In this document: positions 54,891 to 64,000 of the stretch, one piece after another
Numbering within the stretch: the stretch's first letter is position 1
Layout: each line of letters opens with the position of its first letter
Virus record (IMG/VR): IMGVR_UViG_3300031519_000002
Length of the DNA stretch: 64,000 nucleotides
Reading direction: 5' to 3' (one strand)
Source: a virus
Notes under the pieces: model-generated
What the model saw: the letters and a program-made list of their open reading frames with translations, nothing else
What the model was told of the DNA's origin: nothing
The model's database searches: none
Made by a program: the position numbers and the translations under genes

Positions 54891-56350
54891 ACTAGATGCC
54901 TTAATAACTCTAGCATTAACTTATGTGGGATTGTTTTTGATCGATCAAAATTTATTTTGTGCTTACAAATCTCATCAATTTGCATTAGTACTTCATCGGG
55001 CAACATATTATATTGTGTTAAAATGCTATCAGTATCAAACAAATCTAATCCATGCATTACTAGTGCAACATTATATTCGTTAAACAACACTTTCTTTGTA
55101 TATGATGTAAAATCATCAGCAATGGGCAATCGCGTCTTCCACATTTTTAAATTTTCTTGTAGTGTATGTGGCAATGGAGTACTTGCTACTTTGTTCCAAA
55201 ACGGCGTATCACGCCTATTGCTAACATAGTGCAATGCAATAAAGTCTCTAACATTTTCCATTATAGCATTAACTTCTATGTTATATCGATTAATACTTTG
55301 TTCATTATAATTAATCATACGACGAGCTAATAAGAATGCTTGATTGATACTAGTACCAATACTACTTGCTTCTAAAGGTTCTACAAAACTAGCACTAAGG
55401 CCAATAGCACAAACATTTTTAATCCAAGGACGATCAACTGCACCTGGGTCAAATTTAATATGTTTTGCTACGTCAATACTATGTCCTAAATATTTTTCAA
55501 CTTCTATTTGTGCCTGTTCTGCTGTAATAAAGTTACTGTCAAAAATATACCCGTTTCCTTTACGCCCTTGTACCGGTATACGAAACATCCAACCAGCATC
55601 CATTGCTTTAGCTAGAGTCCATAACGGAGTTTCTTCTTCTTGGGGAGTAGGAAATACAATAGCTTCCTTCATTAGCAAATGATCACTATAACTATTCCAA
55701 GTTGCTCCCAGCTTTCCAATTAATAGTCTAGAAAATCCTGTACAATCAATATAAAAATCATAATTATATGTTTTAGTTTTACTTGTAATGTAATCTATAC
55801 CTTGGGTGTTGACTGCTACATCTACTATTTCATCATCAAATACATTACATCCTTTTTCAATTGCAAACTTAGTTAAAAAATTATTTAATTTTTGTGTATT
55901 AAAGTGATATTGACTAACTCCAGTATCGTTTGGACGCTCATCTATAAATTTATTAAATGGTACATTGTTATTCCAAAGATAATCACCCGTCATGTCTCTT
56001 GGATTGCATTGTTCACCAATAAGTTTTGCAAATGCGGCAGGTAATCCTAAATGTTCAAACACAAAAGGAGAATGTACACTTTGAAGATATGGTTTATCTC
56101 CCCAATCTTCAAACATAATTCCTGTTTTGAATGTTGCATCACATTCATTAATAAGTTGTGCAGTCTGTATGCCAACATGATCCATAAATACTGACCAATG
56201 TTCTGTTGTCCCTTCACCAACTCCAATAGTTCCAATTTTTTCTGATCGGATAATGTCTACTTGATAGTTTGGATAAGTGGTTTTTAGAATTAATGCTGAT
56301 ACAAATCCTGCTGTACCGCCGCCTACTACTGCTATTTTCATGTCATTCAT
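54887..56350 (-). CDS. Flavin-dependent halogenase 3
   Basis: VGGGTAG, IGVGEGT, ATFKTGI, WMFRIP, FVEPLEASS. Confidence 0.9.
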   Translation of the reverse strand: MNDMKIAVVGGGTAGFVSALILKTTYPNYQVDIIRSEKIGTIGVGEGTTEHWSVFMDHVGIQTAQLINECDATFKTGIMFEDWGDKPYLQSVHSPFVFEHLGLPAAFAKLIGEQCNPRDMTGDYLWNNNVPFNKFIDERPNDTGVSQYHFNTQKLNNFLTKFAIEKGCNVFDDEIVDVAVNTQGIDYITSKTKTYNYDFYIDCTGFSRLLIGKLGATWNSYSDHLLMKEAIVFPTPQEEETPLWTLAKAMDAGWMFRIPVQGRKGNGYIFDSNFITAEQAQIEVEKYLGHSIDVAKHIKFDPGAVDRPWIKNVCAIGLSASFVEPLEASSIGTSINQAFLLARRMINYNEQSINRYNIEVNAIMENVRDFIALHYVSNRRDTPFWNKVASTPLPHTLQENLKMWKTRLPIADDFTSYTKKVLFNEYNVALVMHGLDLFDTDSILTQYNMLPDEVLMQIDEICKHKINFDRSKTIPHKLMLELLRHLV

Positions 56351-58244: not shown

Positions 58245-60073
58245 TAGTTCTTCATTTCGATCATTACACTATATTCTGGCAAATAGCAGTATTCCATTTC
58301 ACTATTGTAAAGTGTACGAATTGCATCATCTAGTGTTTCTACTAACGGCTCACCACCTAAGTTAAAACTAGTATTAAAGATAATTGGCACATTGGTTTGC
58401 GCATAAAATTCAGTAATAATATCATAATAGTGCTTATTTTGTTTTCTTGTTACAGTTTGTATGCGACATGTTCCATCAACATGTATAATACTAGGAATTA
58501 AATCTTGTTTACCTTCTTGGCAATCCATTGCATACATCATATGCGGACTTTCTTCCAGTCCTCGCATATCAAACCACTCACTTGCATGTTCAGCAAGGAT
58601 AGTTCCTGCAAATGGACGGAAATATTCTCTACGCTTAACACTATTAACATGATCTTTACCGTTCGGGTCAGTTGGATCATACATAATACTTCTGTTACCT
58701 AATGCACGTGGGCCGTTTTCACTTTTTCCTTGAAACATTGTTACAATGTTTTTATTACGAATTAGATCAACAACTTTTTTATTATCTGCTTCTACAACTG
58801 TTGCTCCGTATTTGTCAGCAACTTCTTTAATTTCTTCTGCGCTATAATGATATTCAAATCCTTCGTAGATTGTTTCTGCTAACGGACGTACTTTAGTATC
58901 TTTAGTTGTTTGATGGTACATCATCATTGCCGCACCGATTGCAGTGCCTGCATCGTTACTAACTGGCTCTACATACAAAGTAATACCTTCTTTTTGTAGC
59001 TTATCAAGATACCAATAGTTAGCAACACAGTTTAGTGCATAGCCACCACTTAGTACAACATTTTTGTTGCCACTCATTTCAACTGCTTTCATAATAAGAC
59101 TTAAAACTTCTTGTTGTGATTCTGTTTGTACAGCATATGCTAAGTCTCGACGGTTTTCTAGTGTAGTTAAATCAACTTTACTATTAATTACGTCTTCTGA
59201 TGTGTCAAGATAATCATATTTCCCTTCATTAATAACAGCCGCATTAGGATATGTTGGAACAACAACATTTCTATCACTTGTTCTCCACTTGCCACCATTG
59301 CCATCTGTATATATTGTTGGAATATTACTATTAGGTTTGCCATATGGAGCAAGTCCCATAGTTTTTCCTGCTTCAATTGGTTGGAAGCCACAATATTGTG
59401 TTACTGCTTCATATGCTTTTACAATACCTGCTGTATCGTCAAGTACTAGTTCGTGATATCCTTCTTCACCTTCTCTATCTGACGGAATATACGGAATACA
59501 TGTACTTGGGAACGGGCCATTTCCGCCTTGATGTTTATACAATGTTTTAAATGCATCGGGATATGCACAATTAAAAATACTTTCAGTTTCCCATGTCATA
59601 AATTCATCGTTAAAAATACCAGTATTGATATTCATAGGTATAAATGTTCCAGCACCATCAACAACTACTGCTGTTGCTGTTTCCATACCTGATCTATAAA
59701 ATGCACAAGCCGCATGTAACTTATGATGTACACTAGATAGATCAACTACTTGTCTATGTTCGTATTTTCCATCTTGCGAGTATGCGCTGTCTGAACGATC
59801 AATTAATCCTAACTTACGTGCTAGACCAGTATACATGTCTCCACCACTAAAATCAATTCTACTTGAATCTGCTAATGGTTGCGTGTGTGCAACTACCAAA
59901 TAATCAAGTTTATCAGTGTAGTCTAAAAATTTAATCATTGCGGCTAGCGGCCCACCGTCATATTTTTTACGTGTTAGTCGTTCTTCTTCGATTGCAAACA
60001 CAATCTCTCCGTCTTTAAGAAGAACAGCGCCGCCGTTATGTCCTCTTGTAATTGCTCCAATCCACTGCGTCAT
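58244..60073 (-). CDS. Carbamoyltransferase (NodU/CmcH/TobZ family)
   Basis: EEERLTRKK, HH..HA, DGAG, GKTMGLAPYG, GG.ALNCVAN, GPRALGNRS, RPFA, HVDGT.RIQT, NTSFN. Confidence 0.93.
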   Translation of the reverse strand: MTQWIGAITRGHNGGAVLLKDGEIVFAIEEERLTRKKYDGGPLAAMIKFLDYTDKLDYLVVAHTQPLADSSRIDFSGGDMYTGLARKLGLIDRSDSAYSQDGKYEHRQVVDLSSVHHKLHAACAFYRSGMETATAVVVDGAGTFIPMNINTGIFNDEFMTWETESIFNCAYPDAFKTLYKHQGGNGPFPSTCIPYIPSDREGEEGYHELVLDDTAGIVKAYEAVTQYCGFQPIEAGKTMGLAPYGKPNSNIPTIYTDGNGGKWRTSDRNVVVPTYPNAAVINEGKYDYLDTSEDVINSKVDLTTLENRRDLAYAVQTESQQEVLSLIMKAVEMSGNKNVVLSGGYALNCVANYWYLDKLQKEGITLYVEPVSNDAGTAIGAAMMMYHQTTKDTKVRPLAETIYEGFEYHYSAEEIKEVADKYGATVVEADNKKVVDLIRNKNIVTMFQGKSENGPRALGNRSIMYDPTDPNGKDHVNSVKRREYFRPFAGTILAEHASEWFDMRGLEESPHMMYAMDCQEGKQDLIPSIIHVDGTCRIQTVTRKQNKHYYDIITEFYAQTNVPIIFNTSFNLGGEPLVETLDDAIRTLYNSEMEYCYLPEYSVMIEMKN

Positions 60074-60118
60074 AGTTTTATCTTCCTTTGTTATGTTTTA
60101 ATTTTATTAGTTCGATTA

Positions 60119-60730
60119 TTAGTCAAAAGTAGGTGTTGGATTATAATTAAAATCAACTACAAATACTTTTCTTTCATTAAGTGTAGGATATGTTCCATGA
60201 AATACCCTACCGTCCATAATTACCATTTTACCTGCTTGTGTAGGATGTGTACGGTATTGAATAGTATTATCTTCTGTAGGCTGTAATGTAAATAAATTTC
60301 CAGCATATGGAAGATTAATATCTGCGTCACAATCATCTAAAAACAATATAGCTGTTAATTGCTTTCCTAGTATATGATCATGTAGTAAACTGTATGCACC
60401 CGTTGGATATCTTACACCCCATGCTTTCTTAAACTGCCCAACATTAATCGGTAATTGTTGTAATTGAAATTTTATAAAACTTTGAAATTCTAGTCTAGGA
60501 TCAATATCAGTTGGATAATCCATATTAGGCTTATAAAATTGGACGCCACCACTGAATCCTGTATTTTTGTGTCCTTCATTTTCGTCTTTAAATAAAGCTA
60601 AAAACTTTTTCCACTTAGGATAGTAAATATCATCTATAATCCAAGTTTCAATTTGATTAGGCAATACTGCTTTAGGTAGCTCAAGCGGTTCTGTATATGA
60701 ACTATTTAAGAATTGTCCCGGATCTGACAT
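60119..60730 (-). CDS. Putative 2OG-Fe(II) oxygenase
   Basis: AWGVRY...YSLLHDH, LTAILFL, FHGTYP..R. Confidence 0.65.
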   Translation of the reverse strand: MSDPGQFLNSSYTEPLELPKAVLPNQIETWIIDDIYYPKWKKFLALFKDENEGHKNTGFSGGVQFYKPNMDYPTDIDPRLEFQSFIKFQLQQLPINVGQFKKAWGVRYPTGAYSLLHDHILGKQLTAILFLDDCDADINLPYAGNLFTLQPTEDNTIQYRTHPTQAGKMVIMDGRVFHGTYPTLNERKVFVVDFNYNPTPTFD

Positions 60731-61789
60731 TTATTTTCCGGTCCTGCCTAAAATTTGTGCTGATTGAGAGCCGTGTGTTACACCATTTGAATGGACAACT
60801 CCGTGTGTAGGACAAACTTCACCTTCTTGTTGCTGTGCAACATAGTTACCAGTATATGATCTTGGCTTGCCTAAACGTTTGCGAACACTTGTAATAATCT
60901 TCTTAAAACTTTCATCGTTTAATTCCATTACTTCATCGTTAAATCGTTCAACTGCATCTTCCATTGTAAGTCTAATAGGACTAAACTTGCGTCTACCCTC
61001 ACCTAAATCAACAATGTCAAAGTCTGGACTATCAGGATATGAAATATTAATAGGGTAAGTACTGCCAATAACACTTGTACACGTAGTACCGAGTGCTTTT
61101 GCCATATGTTGTCCTAAACTATCGCACCCAATAAAATGATCTGCAATTTGAATAATGCTAGACCAAACTCTTACATCACTAATTTGTGGAATTGCAATCG
61201 GCACTGTCGGAGTTTCTTCGATTGTAATTGGAAATTCGCTCATTACAACAACAGCATAATCATCACGTAAGTCTTTACAAATACGAATTACATCGTTGAG
61301 GTGGAAACTTCTAGAAGTGCTATCAATTACAAAGTCTCCCATGTTCTCTGCGGTTCTACCAAATGGTTGGAATACTACAACTTTGTCTTTTTTAGTCATT
61401 GCTTTAATTTCTTCAATGACTTTAAAGCCTTGCACCATTTCTTGCTTGTTCATATGTATTGTTGGGTCTGTTAACTCTCTAAGGCCTTCGTTATTAATTG
61501 CAATATCAAATGCCTGTGCTAAACTACATTTTTGATTATAGTATTCCCAAACTCTATATGGTTCTGGTGAGAAGCAATCCCTGTCTTTAATGTAATCTTT
61601 AAACAAGTTTTTATGCCAATTGTCGTATGCTAGTTCGTGTAATACAGGATGTCCTTTATAAAAATCCATTCCTCCTTCACAAACAATAATAAAATCTTTG
61701 TCTGTTTCGTATAACTTTTCAAATGCAGGAATAGATGCAACTACTCTGCCGGCGCCACCGTTTATAAAATATGCTTTTTTGCGTGTCAA
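60731..61789 (-). CDS. GT9-like glycosyltransferase (candidate heptosyltransferase)
   Basis: GGAGRV, VFQPFG, FIGCDSLGQHMAKALG; TTG start with AGGAGAG SD. Confidence 0.7.
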   Translation of the reverse strand: MTRKKAYFINGGAGRVVASIPAFEKLYETDKDFIIVCEGGMDFYKGHPVLHELAYDNWHKNLFKDYIKDRDCFSPEPYRVWEYYNQKCSLAQAFDIAINNEGLRELTDPTIHMNKQEMVQGFKVIEEIKAMTKKDKVVVFQPFGRTAENMGDFVIDSTSRSFHLNDVIRICKDLRDDYAVVVMSEFPITIEETPTVPIAIPQISDVRVWSSIIQIADHFIGCDSLGQHMAKALGTTCTSVIGSTYPINISYPDSPDFDIVDLGEGRRKFSPIRLTMEDAVERFNDEVMELNDESFKKIITSVRKRLGKPRSYTGNYVAQQQEGEVCPTHGVVHSNGVTHGSQSAQILGRTGK

Positions 61790-61852: not shown

Positions 61853-61888
61853 AAAAAAAATCCCTGCATAAACTAATATACAGGGATT
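61853..61888 (-). terminator. Rho-independent terminator
   Basis: AATCCCTG...CAGGGATT stem followed by a T run on the minus strand. Confidence 0.8.
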
Positions 61889-61908: not shown

Positions 61909-62697
61909 CTATTTCTTACCAGCGGCTTTTTGACCTGCAACTGCAACATCAACAGCAAATGCGCCATCTCTGTAAGGATCTGCTGGATCACTTGATGGAC
62001 TTGGGTCTCTCATATCCTTTGGTACTACTGGAAACATCATAACTGCTTGCCACGGTTCGTATCCACGTGCAGTCATAACTGCTGGATGATCACGTAATCT
62101 CTGTCTGTAATCTAACCAAACTTGTTGTATCGAATCTGGTGCATCTGTTTGACCAACTTTCGCATCAGTAGCGTGTAATTCGTCGTCTCTTACATCTCTA
62201 ACTTCTTCCCATGTAAGATTCATGTTTGCGCCTGTTGCCGCCCAATCATGAACTCCTAATACAAATTCATTAGTTGTAAAGTCCCATGTAATGTTCCATT
62301 CGTCATAGACATCTCTTGGTTCTATATTAGATGTGTATTCAACGTCTTGATATCCGTCTGGTGCGTCCCAAAGAACTTCCCATTCTCTTTCGCGCCGCAT
62401 TTGGACACCTGATTCTTTGCCGGTGTCGTTACCAATTTCGCATAGTAACGGATTGGCTTTGCAATCAACTGTTACTCTCATGATATCAGCGCCAGCAGGT
62501 CTTTCTAAATCATTCTTGCGCCACAGGCACCATCCTGATTCTTTTCCATAGTCATCTGTCGATGGATCATTTTGTACTTCAAAAGTTAAAAATTCTGGAC
62601 CATCATATGTAAAGGTGCCAGTACGCCCTTGCGTAAAACTATTTGTTCTCCACTCATCCCATATTGGGTAAGTAAAATCTTGACTAATTATTCTCAT
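61909..62697 (-). CDS. Tail fibre assembly chaperone with N-terminal extension
   Basis: WEEVRDVRDDEL..TD...W..YRQRLRD.P. Confidence 0.75.
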   Translation of the reverse strand: MRIISQDFTYPIWDEWRTNSFTQGRTGTFTYDGPEFLTFEVQNDPSTDDYGKESGWCLWRKNDLERPAGADIMRVTVDCKANPLLCEIGNDTGKESGVQMRREREWEVLWDAPDGYQDVEYTSNIEPRDVYDEWNITWDFTTNEFVLGVHDWAATGANMNLTWEEVRDVRDDELHATDAKVGQTDAPDSIQQVWLDYRQRLRDHPAVMTARGYEPWQAVMMFPVVPKDMRDPSPSSDPADPYRDGAFAVDVAVAGQKAAGKK

Positions 62698-62716
62698 TTT
62701 ATTCAGCTCCTAAAAC

Positions 62717-62723
62717 TATTTAT
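62717..62723 (-). promoter_or_regulatory. Late promoter
   Basis: ATAAATA, then AGGAG, then ATG at 62697. Confidence 0.65.
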
Positions 62724-62726
62724 CAT

Positions 62727-63566
62727 TTACATAAAGGTTATTCGAACAACACCCGAACCACCCTGGCCTGATCCACCTGCACAACATTTTGCCCAGTTTC
62801 CACAATATGAACTAACGCCTGGCATGCCGCCACCTGATGGCCATTCAATATGGCATCCACAGTTACACCATGCTTCGTTAGTAGCACTAGTTGACATTTT
62901 TCCGATCTTTGGCGGTGAACCTGAACCCGAAAATGGATAGTTACAGTGACAGTTACCGTGTCCGTGAATCCATCCTGTTGATCCCATTGCACCAAAATCA
63001 GCGCCAAAAATTCCACATATATTACAGTTTTCACAGCTAAAATGAGTGTGCCTTGGACCCCATGCGTCTCCATTACACATCCAACCACCACAGCCGCCTA
63101 CTGTACAAAAATTCGATAAGTTATATCCGTTTACATAACTTTTACAACCCATACCTGCACCACAAGTGTGTGACTTACCACATGGCCATGAACCACCGGC
63201 GCATACACTGTATTGGCATCCTGGACTTGTATTAATTGTCTTTGAACCGTAGTTTCCACCAGCACCACCAATAGTAAACGAACAACAGTTACAGCATGTA
63301 TGACCTGGGCCACCGCCACCGCCACTCCAAACTTCAAATGTTACTGTACTTGCACCATCTGGTACACACCAATAACAACATTTACCATTTGCTTGTTCAC
63401 AACAACCTGATTGTCTAGCACACTGATGACATTGCATGCCACGTGCATTGTAGATCCATTGTACTCCTAGGTTATTGCCATTTCCGTGTGCAATATCATC
63501 ACTAGTTACTGTACCATTTACAATACTGTCTGTTGCTACTTTTTTATAACTTGCATATGTTGCCAT
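62727..63566 (-). CDS. Cys/Gly-rich tail fibre-type protein (glycine-rich domain)
   Basis: W.VP.G..V.FEVWSGGGGG...GGSGVVRITF scaffold; 30 Cys and 10 Trp in 279 aa (hand count). Confidence 0.75.
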   Translation of the reverse strand: MATYASYKKVATDSIVNGTVTSDDIAHGNGNNLGVQWIYNARGMQCHQCARQSGCCEQANGKCCYWCVPDGASTVTFEVWSGGGGGPGHTCCNCCSFTIGGAGGNYGSKTINTSPGCQYSVCAGGSWPCGKSHTCGAGMGCKSYVNGYNLSNFCTVGGCGGWMCNGDAWGPRHTHFSCENCNICGIFGADFGAMGSTGWIHGHGNCHCNYPFSGSGSPPKIGKMSTSATNEAWCNCGCHIEWPSGGGMPGVSSYCGNWAKCCAGGSGQGGSGVVRITFM

Positions 63567-63665
63567 TTGTTCTCTTTCCTTTTAAGCGAATGTTATTTTG
63601 ACCATTCCTGATCCACCCATATTTCCAGCCGCACAACATTTTGCCCAGTTTCCACAATATGAACT
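62779..63665. repeat. 35-bp perfect direct repeat shared by the two Cys-rich paralogs
   Basis: gcacaacattttgcccagtttccacaatatgaact at 62779-62813 and 63631-63665. Confidence 0.9.
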
Positions 63666-64000
63666 CTGTGCTGATTGTCCACCACCTGCTGGCCAGTTAA
63701 CATAACATGCACAGTTGCACCACGCTTCTGCGTTTGAGCCTGCTGTACGTTTAGCTACAAAGGGTGCCGCTCCTGATTGTTGCCAGTCTGCTGATTTACA
63801 TTGGCATTGTCCTTGACCACCTTTGACGCCAGTTGATCCCATAATTCCAAAGTCTGCTCCAAATATGCCGCAAATTAAACAGTTTGCACATGATTGTGTA
63901 TGTCTTGGTCCGTGCGCATCGCCATTACACATCCAACCACCACATGCACCTGTAGTACAGAAGTTACTTAGGTTATGTCCATTAATATAACTCTTACAAC
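63582..64000 (-). CDS. Paralogous Cys/Gly-rich fibre protein, 5' end beyond the window
   Basis: Frame open to the window edge (CKSYINGHNLSNFCTTGACGGWMC...) and collinear with 62727-63566. Confidence 0.8.
   Translation of the reverse strand, partial: CKSYINGHNLSNFCTTGACGGWMCNGDAHGPRHTQSCANCLICGIFGADFGIMGSTGVKGGQGQCQCKSADWQQSGAAPFVAKRTAGSNAEAWCNCACYVNWPAGGGQSAQSSYCGNWAKCCAAGNMGGSGMVKITFA

Follow-up and report, generated by a model that had tools for sequence, protein, structure and literature searches.

The 64,000-nucleotide stretch of virus DNA analysed here (IMG/VR record IMGVR_UViG_3300031519_000002, hereafter the window) carries near its end a minus-strand open reading frame (ORF), 62727-63566(-), whose product of 279 amino acids (aa) contains 30 cysteines. 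The protein represents a known fibre domain, the glycine-rich domain PF21722, in a Cys-rich form; this variant is unannotated, abundant in ocean viromes and amenable to experiment, and no literature on it was found. A literature search returned no paper mentioning PF21722, and cyanophage Pam3 was its sole result for cysteine-rich tail fibres in cyanophages. On balance, and with modest assurance, we favour the view that the gene encodes the third of three small distal tail-fibre proteins of a marine T4-like cyanophage (Kyanoviridae), and that the protein serves as a receptor-binding tip with loops stapled mainly by disulfides. Which strains of Prochlorococcus and Synechococcus a phage is able to kill depends on its receptor-binding proteins. 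Residue numbers refer throughout to the 279-aa protein, and the elements of the gene and of its truncated neighbour are as follows.

62727..63566, minus strand: Cys-rich TNF-like/glycine-rich (TG) protein, putatively of a fibre, third of three tandem paralogs; open ORF, 279 aa, 30 Cys
62730..63479, minus strand: TG domain, residues 30-279, a TNF-like beta-sandwich with a Gly/Cys-rich loop lattice (AlphaFold2 model and structural matches)
63537..63566, minus strand: conserved N-terminal decapeptide MATYASYKKV, common to all three paralogs; candidate docking motif
63582..64000 (ORF 63582-63998), minus strand: paralog 2, C-terminal 138 aa, cut by the end of the window; directly upstream of paralog 3 and 64% identical to it

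A divergent PF21722 glycine-rich domain

The reading frame is open, and it contains the 30 Cys in 279 aa and every motif that had been quoted in the initial annotation of this DNA. Cysteine makes up 10.8% of the product, which also holds 55 Gly and 10 His, and its 28 aromatic residues are made up of 10 Trp, 10 Tyr and 8 Phe. Across the window, ORFs of 150 aa or more have a mean Cys content of 1.1%, and the second-richest reaches 2.8%; at the window rate, the binomial probability of at least 30 Cys in a protein of 279 aa is 3e-20. All 15 Cys of the truncated paralog 2 align with Cys of the complete copy, in agreement with the earlier statement that the Cys positions are largely conserved between the two. 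The G+C content at 62001-64000 is 42.9%, compared with 34-41% elsewhere in the window, a rise explained by the codons that the paralogs use for Gly and Cys; the GC skew is strongly negative. A plus-strand ORF at 62629-62940, which overlaps the Cys-rich gene, was taken as spurious.

The AlphaFold2 (AF2) model, calculated from a 110-sequence alignment, has a predicted local distance difference test (pLDDT) score of 81.2 and a predicted template modelling (pTM) score of 0.79. Its top Foldseek match is the fibre of cyanophage Pam3 (E 9e-7). Structural comparison with VIA placed residues 30-279 on Pam3 gp24 (7ypx_A) with a Z score of 18.0 and a root-mean-square deviation of 2.9 Å over 194 aa, on the Bxb1 tail-tip chain 9d93_Qa with Z 12.1 over 187 aa, and on the TG domains of ALK/LTK with Z 7.3-9.5 (ALK, 9.5); the best unrelated chain in the full search of 48,161 chains reached a Z of only 4.4. 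Chain 9d93_Qa corresponds in length and residue range to Bxb1 gp33, itself a bona fide PF21722 member (45.4 bits).

At the level of sequence the relationship is more distant. The window protein falls below the gathering cut-off of PF21722 Gly_rich_2 (24.3 bits), and searches of PDB sequences with the protein or its profile returned nothing. Of 27 close homologs, seven do match PF21722 (best 2e-8), and the three paralogs of phage S-SSM7 score 28.7, 25.6 and 25.1 bits, covering positions 7-225 of the 226 in the Pfam model. The Cys-rich family is also aligned by hhalign with 86 low-Cys PF21722 domains over residues 65-145, in its N-terminal half only (probability 96%, E 4.7e-9). Both groups share a W-T-V-P motif, a GGGGG run, P-G-x-x-Y-T-V and a C-terminal G-S-G-x-V-x-I strand; they differ in composition, with ordinary PF21722 domains at about 0.75% Cys and 35% Gly and the Cys-rich clade at 6-12% Cys and about 20% Gly. 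The protein is a divergent PF21722 glycine-rich domain, and the glycine-rich fibre scaffold that had been proposed for it is matched by the PF21722 / Pam3 gp24 fold.

In marine viromes the family is common: it has 281 close clusters and 172 IMG/VR hits, and one ESM Atlas cluster numbers 980 members; all of the ESM Atlas clusters closest to the window protein are viral. In a profile search of 1.8 billion proteins, all 150 best representatives are Cys-rich, mostly 6-12%, and Cys richness is a property of the whole clade. The window protein falls in phrog_4205 (1e-31; function unknown), and its 281 close relatives in the protein collection are all unannotated, some of them carrying PF21722. The present assignment gives an annotation to phrog_4205 and to the hypothetical proteins SSSM7_114-116 and PSSM2_304/306.

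Pam3 gp24 (7YPX/7YFW; PMC9608196, PMC9942802) is the nearest known system. It shares with the window protein the TNF-like part and the glycine-rich loop lattice; both proteins are small and both genes are directly followed by a gene for a Tfa-type chaperone. In Pam3 this chaperone, gp25, is encoded beside gp24 and folds it (PMC9608196), and the Pam3 virion likewise uses cysteines and disulfides at its fibres. The two proteins are nevertheless only about 18% identical. The one functional Cys of Pam3 gp24, Cys28, sits in a long helical shaft at the N-terminus, whereas the window protein has in its place about 30 residues, modelled as short helices with pLDDT 56-68; relatives in P-SSM2 carry an N-terminal extension of about 85-110 residues before the TG domain. 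The 28 invariant Cys described below lie in the TG domain itself, which is not so in Pam3 gp24, and there are three paralogs here, in a T4-like phage with separate large fibres, as against a single gene in Pam3. The other solved phage relative, Bxb1 gp33 (9D93), is a non-essential ‘tail wing brush’ (PMC12646305). The TG supradomain of ALK/LTK has the same two-part fold as our model and belongs to an animal receptor ectodomain that binds a cytokine; this is a likeness of fold only, with no detectable relation in sequence.

Invariant cysteines and hypervariable loops

Conservation was assessed on 93 distinct sequences from the three paralog classes. Across these classes 28 Cys columns are 100% invariant (one 99%), and optional Cys occur at six further positions (32, 34, 60, 67, 94 and 114); the 30 Cys of the window protein are the core of 28 together with C67 and C94. 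Invariance of at least 98% is reached by 34 Gly, 28 Cys, 7 Trp and 6 Tyr columns and by only two His (H133 and H173). Since the invariant Cys occur together with invariant Gly, Trp and Tyr, they have the mark of a structural scaffold and do not resemble surface acceptors. Of the 30 Cys, 23 are modelled in neither strand nor helix but in the loops which make up the glycine lattice of Pam3. The Cys motifs are C46-x2-C49, C178-x2-C181-x2-C184, C206-x-C208, C234-x-C236-x-C238 and CC doublets, and the doublets fall within strands, as in heavily cross-linked extracellular domains. The codons of the two optional Cys are located as follows.

63285..63287, minus strand: codon of optional C94; Cys in 42% of the 93 paralog sequences, alternatives Asn/Tyr
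63366..63368, minus strand: codon of optional C67, part of the motif W-T/C-V-P and the only site with a clear change from Thr to Cys

Position 67 is Cys in 86%, 16% and 97% of the sequences of paralog classes 1, 2 and 3, and Thr in 87 of 110 family members.

The initial annotation had supposed that Cys stands at positions where Thr or Ser is usual. We tallied such exchanges against a low-Cys set made up of the 485-aa PF21722 protein of P-SSM2 and 85 homologs (mean 0.75% Cys, 34.7% Gly); homologs of Bxb1 gp33 were dropped for this purpose because they aligned poorly and included frameshifted sequences. The local hhalign alignment spans residues 65-145 only, so that 10 of the 30 Cys are comparable and 20 lie outside. 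The aligned low-Cys columns have the following composition.

C67: Thr 74%
C91: mixed, Thr 24%, Ser 20%
C117: Gln 45%, Asn 24%
C122: Val 81%
C129: Gly 40%
C141: Gly 76%
C92, C94, C95 and C135: mixed loop

Pooled over the ten columns, Ser and Thr together account for 27%, compared with a background of 18%, and Gly for 21%. The supposition therefore holds for C67 only, and C67 is optional; the other alignable Cys fall on Val, Gly, Gln, Asn or variable loop. Judged from these alignments, a better generalisation is that Cys has taken the place of part of the glycine lattice and of residues at some core positions. Replacement of Gly is indicated by the fall in Gly content from 35% to 20% (34.7% in the low-Cys domains, 19.7% in the window protein) and by the placement of C141 and C129 on Gly columns. 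The glycine-lattice fibre fold of Pam3 gp24, PF21722 and ALK/LTK has, on this evidence, a natural version in which Cys assumes much of the packing.

Variation in the protein is concentrated at residues 11-40, 171-177 and 191-230, the last two of which correspond to the following segments.

62877..62996, minus strand: main hypervariable segment, residues 191-230, flanked by invariant Cys/Gly motifs
63036..63056, minus strand: second, short hypervariable segment, residues 171-177; entropy 1.21 (block 171-180)

Blocks of 10 residues have entropies of 1.15-1.92 within residues 191-230 and of 0.08-0.7 in the scaffold. Divergence is also mosaic at the level of genes: relative to a near-identical contig (L038), the flanking genes are 98-100% identical and the Cys-rich genes and chaperone 77-92%. 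Hypervariable loops and mosaic divergence of this kind are typical of receptor-binding proteins, and on these grounds we infer a receptor-binding role. A similar pattern is seen in the gp38 adhesin, in which conserved glycine-rich motifs alternate with hypervariable receptor-binding segments (PMC9608196). The T2/S16-type gp38 (6F45) works alike, as a protein of its own, about 260 aa long, whose gene follows that of the distal fibre; it has, however, a beta-helix instead of the TNF-like middle domain, and it is not Cys-rich. Entry 6F45 is missing from the Foldseek and VIA match lists of our model, an absence which does not by itself exclude likeness.

The N-terminus shows the opposite behaviour in its first residues. 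Within the decapeptide M1, A2, Y4, S6, Y7 and K8 are at least 98% identical across the 93 paralog sequences (block entropy 0.4); a motif of the MATYASYKKV type is also present in the S-SSM7 paralogs and is missing from those of the S-CAM phages and P-SSM2. Conservation of this kind suggests that the decapeptide may act as a docking peptide.

In a quick tree the paralogs of S-SSM7, S-CAM, P-SSM2 and contig L083 group by phage lineage at depth, and within the clade of the window they group by array position. The copy number is three in most lineages. From this pattern it seems that the paralogs were triplicated repeatedly or underwent gene conversion, while their number stayed at three. TNF-like beta-sandwich domains are normally trimeric, and three conserved copies would, speculatively, fit a TNF-like heterotrimer.

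The tail-fibre module

A scan of IMG/VR returned 70 loci, and complete arrays of three paralogs were found in 53. The order of the module is large tail fibres, two small fibre-related ORFs (108 aa and 149 aa), three Cys-rich paralogs, a chaperone and a protein resembling glycosyltransferase family GT9. The first fibre protein is at least 794 aa long; the second has 1614 aa, matches phrog_9851 at 7e-223 and contains five CBM_5_12 modules. Exactly three Cys-rich paralogs, of 279, 278 and 279 aa, are present in all 53 complete arrays, the ORF of the window being the third. The chaperone follows the array in 56 of 56 loci and the GT9-like protein comes next in 53 of 53; beyond the latter are 2-oxoglutarate (2OG) oxygenases and a carbamoyltransferase (50 of 50 loci). 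The same order is kept in the isolates S-SSM7, P-SSM2, S-CAM1 and S-CAM3, which represent four genera of Kyanoviridae and carry two or three Cys-rich TG genes with 24-36 Cys each. The neighbours in the window are as follows.

61909..62697, minus strand: tail-fibre assembly chaperone-like protein, 262 aa, 3 Cys (PF16778, PHROG tail fibre assembly families)
61859..61888, minus strand: terminator-like hairpin, 12-bp stem and T run, apparently ending the fibre operon (consensus match only)
60731..61789, minus strand: GT-B protein with a GT9-like fold, 352 aa, adjoining the module (phrog_8954 at 3e-142)

The chaperone scores 29.2 bits against PF16778 Phage_tail_APC (cut-off 26.6) over residues 163-211, and the hairpin sits between its gene and that of the GT9-like protein. 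On a related contig the 1614-aa fibre with its five CBM_5_12 carbohydrate-binding modules is found at L025:2608-7452, upstream of the paralog array. We note that P-SSM2 encodes two 36-Cys TG proteins as well as a low-Cys PF21722 protein (485 aa, 2 Cys; 109165-110622, L017:901-2358), so that a single virion gene set contains the domain in both versions.

Thiol chemistry and the GT9-like neighbour

In the arrangement that we favour, each chain would consist of a short N-terminal docking peptide, a TNF-like beta-sandwich and long loops. These loops, which form the glycine lattice in the low-Cys relatives Pam3 gp24, Bxb1 gp33 and ALK/LTK, have lost about half of their lattice glycine in the Cys-rich clade; the 28 invariant Cys would instead staple them to one another and to the sandwich, most likely through up to 14 disulfides. 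Like gp25 in Pam3, the Tfa-like chaperone encoded by the next gene downstream would hold the loop domain and help it to fold, and the disulfides would form once the chaperone-held protein leaves the reducing cell, or late in infection. The surface that binds the receptor would be displayed by the hypervariable segments, which lie between invariant Cys/Gly motifs.

Disulfides are suggested because the invariant core is even (28), because some extra Cys are gained in pairs and because the CC doublets lie in strands. Across the superfamily the strongest co-occurrence of extra Cys is between 208 and 238 (phi 0.90), 168 and 176 (phi 0.88) and 57 and 60 (phi 0.82). These three clean pairs and a few weak reciprocal ones are confounded by phylogeny and by alignment error among distant sequences, and connectivity is not derivable from them. 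The reading also draws on two known cases, the disulfide-linked fibres of Pam3 and the stabilisation of a glycine-rich antifreeze bundle by disulfides. Pam3 fibres are disulfide-linked to the baseplate wedge, dithiothreitol (DTT) detaches them, and mass spectrometry confirmed three of six bonds (PMC9942802); the premise of the initial annotation, that disulfides are unlikely in virions, is contradicted by this example. In the antifreeze protein, a glycine-rich bundle of polyproline II (PPII) helices, disulfides are decisive for stability (bioRxiv 10.1101/2023.11.25.568672).

Several observations weigh against disulfides or against a place in the virion. No DsbA-like oxidase was found in four phages carrying the Cys-rich family; a search of the carrier phages for Erv1/ALR likewise gave no matches, but its control gave no signal anywhere. 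Synthesis of the proteins takes place in the reducing cytoplasm, and closely packed Cys are there usually zinc ligands. The window protein has no Pfam match even at E<=10, PF21722 and the metal-binding families included. The Cys-rich family is absent from Syn9, S-PM2 and S-SM1, the three cyanophages with published virion proteomes. The total Cys counts of 116 family members (64 even, 52 odd) show no preference for even numbers, which suggests that some thiols are free or otherwise used; given an even core of 28 to which single optional Cys are added, the parity of the total is at the same time non-discriminating.

It is possible, though unlikely, that the same fibre tip is held together by metal, the invariant thiols with H133 and H173 coordinating structural Zn, or Fe / Fe-S. 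Such clusters would fold in the reducing cytoplasm and hold the loops, and the tip would possibly be metal- or redox-sensitive. The CxxC, CxxCxxC and CxCxC spacings and the CC doublets suit metal knuckles, and the two invariant His stand beside Cys (S-H-T-C at 133; H173). Metal would also be consistent with the Cys totals, with the missing DsbA-like gene in the four carrier phages and with the behaviour of Cys columns 55, 129, 141, 159, 208, 234 and 238, which are gained and lost as a group. Cys-rich domains folded inside cells are usually zinc sites, and the tips of T4 gp37, T4 gp12 and PAAR/spike proteins hold Fe or Zn. Only two of the ten His are invariant, however, the top co-occurrence signals are pairs and not quartets, the invariant core is even, and the grouping of Cys columns is open to the same confounding by phylogeny and alignment error as the pairs. 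The solved relatives Pam3 gp24, Bxb1 gp33 and ALK are not reported as metal proteins, and the lack of matches to metal-binding Pfam families even at E<=10 argues in the same direction.

Somewhat more doubtful still is a bolder version, in which the 28 thiols of each chain form Zn or Fe/Fe-S thiolate clusters and the fibre tips of abundant ocean cyanophages are metal-loaded, redox-switchable devices for receptor binding, with possible tailoring by the GT9-like enzyme. If this were true, three paralogs in a possible TNF-like heterotrimer would bring 84 thiols to each tip, and the thiolates would parallel the His-Fe sites on which the ‘Ferrojan Horse’ idea rests. A metallothionein-like array, one of two roles previously offered for the thiols, does not match the protein: metallothioneins are small, with about 30% Cys, few or no aromatic residues and no stable fold unless metal is bound, whereas the protein has 10.8% Cys, 28 aromatic residues and a confidently predicted beta-sandwich. 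The questions raised by the family are whether adsorption is sensitive to redox or metal, whether the three paralogs make a heterotrimeric tip, and whether the GT9-fold enzyme tailors the fibre.

We regard it as improbable that the paralogs are non-virion Cys-rich proteins, intracellular or released, which share the TG fold and might act, for example, as buffers of metal or reactive oxygen species or as modifiers of the host surface. The published virion proteomes cover only phages without the Cys-rich family, and the N-terminal region of about 30 residues has low pLDDT and lacks the helical shaft, some 70 residues long, of Pam3 gp24, both of which would be compatible with this idea. Against it stand the position of the genes within a tail-fibre operon, with that of a fibre chaperone coming next, the fact that the two phage relatives of solved structure are tail appendages, and the hypervariable loops and mosaic divergence, which are typical of receptor-binding proteins.

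The GT9-like protein matches no Pfam family, including PF01075 (cut-off 22 bits), and its P-SSM2 orthologue scores below that cut-off at 15.4 bits (E 0.011). The AF2 model is of moderate quality (pLDDT 65.6), and Foldseek matches it to 3tov (4e-9), WaaF 1psw (1.5e-6), TibC 4rb4 (1.4e-5) and WaaC 2gt1 (4.4e-5). The ‘nearby GT9’ of the initial annotation is therefore borne out as to fold and not as to membership of PF01075. Like the Cys-rich genes, this gene occurs in S-SSM7, P-SSM2, S-CAM1 and S-CAM3 and is missing from Syn9, S-PM2 and S-SM1. A functional link between enzyme and fibre is possible; inheritance as a block would give the same pattern. An adhesin gene beside a gene for a GT9-fold enzyme is also found in TibA/TibC and AIDA-I/AAH, whose enzymes O-heptosylate Ser on a beta-helix. 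Unlike in those pairs, the Pfam GT9 family is not matched here, the operons of fibre and enzyme are apparently separate, and the role of the fibre as substrate is putative. Ser/Thr or a non-protein substrate is likelier than Cys as the acceptor.

Very improbable, finally, is the S-heptosylation put forward in the initial annotation, by which the Cys would accept heptose from phage-made ADP-heptose through the neighbouring GT9-like enzyme: the adjacency of the enzyme in 53 of 53 loci, its shared presence and absence in seven isolates, the protein O-heptosyltransferase TibC among its fold matches and the heptose-pathway genes nearby in S-CAM1 and S-CAM3 would accord with it, but the 28 invariant Cys are embedded in a Gly/Trp/Tyr scaffold unlike surface acceptors, the sole replacement of a conserved Thr (C67) is optional, known GT9 protein heptosyltransferases modify Ser and none is known as an S-glycosyltransferase, the terminator-like hairpin stands between fibre operon and GT9-like gene, the two may co-occur through inheritance as a block, the 43 Ser/Thr are likelier acceptors if the enzyme acts on the fibre, and the enzyme could act on a host glycan or another substrate.

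Some further features of this region were observed. The C-terminal ~30 residues of the GT9-like protein contain a nearly invariant E-V-C-P-T-H-G-V-x-H and are unstructured in the AF2 model (pLDDT 25-30), and its N-terminus contains an invariant G-G-A-G-R, the Arg being position 15. The PDB title of TibC describes an iron-containing heptosyltransferase. In S-CAM3 the Cys-rich fibre genes are followed, some 5 kb downstream, by a gene annotated as cysteine dioxygenase (L008:11824-12180), which stands beside heptose-pathway genes. Two more stretches of the window, 60000-60750 and 55000-56250, have diverged strongly (67-88% identity) from contig L038, which is otherwise 98-100% identical. The first falls in the 2OG-oxygenase gene beside the GT9-like gene, and the second is situated about 5 kb further on; the cluster of tailoring enzymes is therefore mosaic too.

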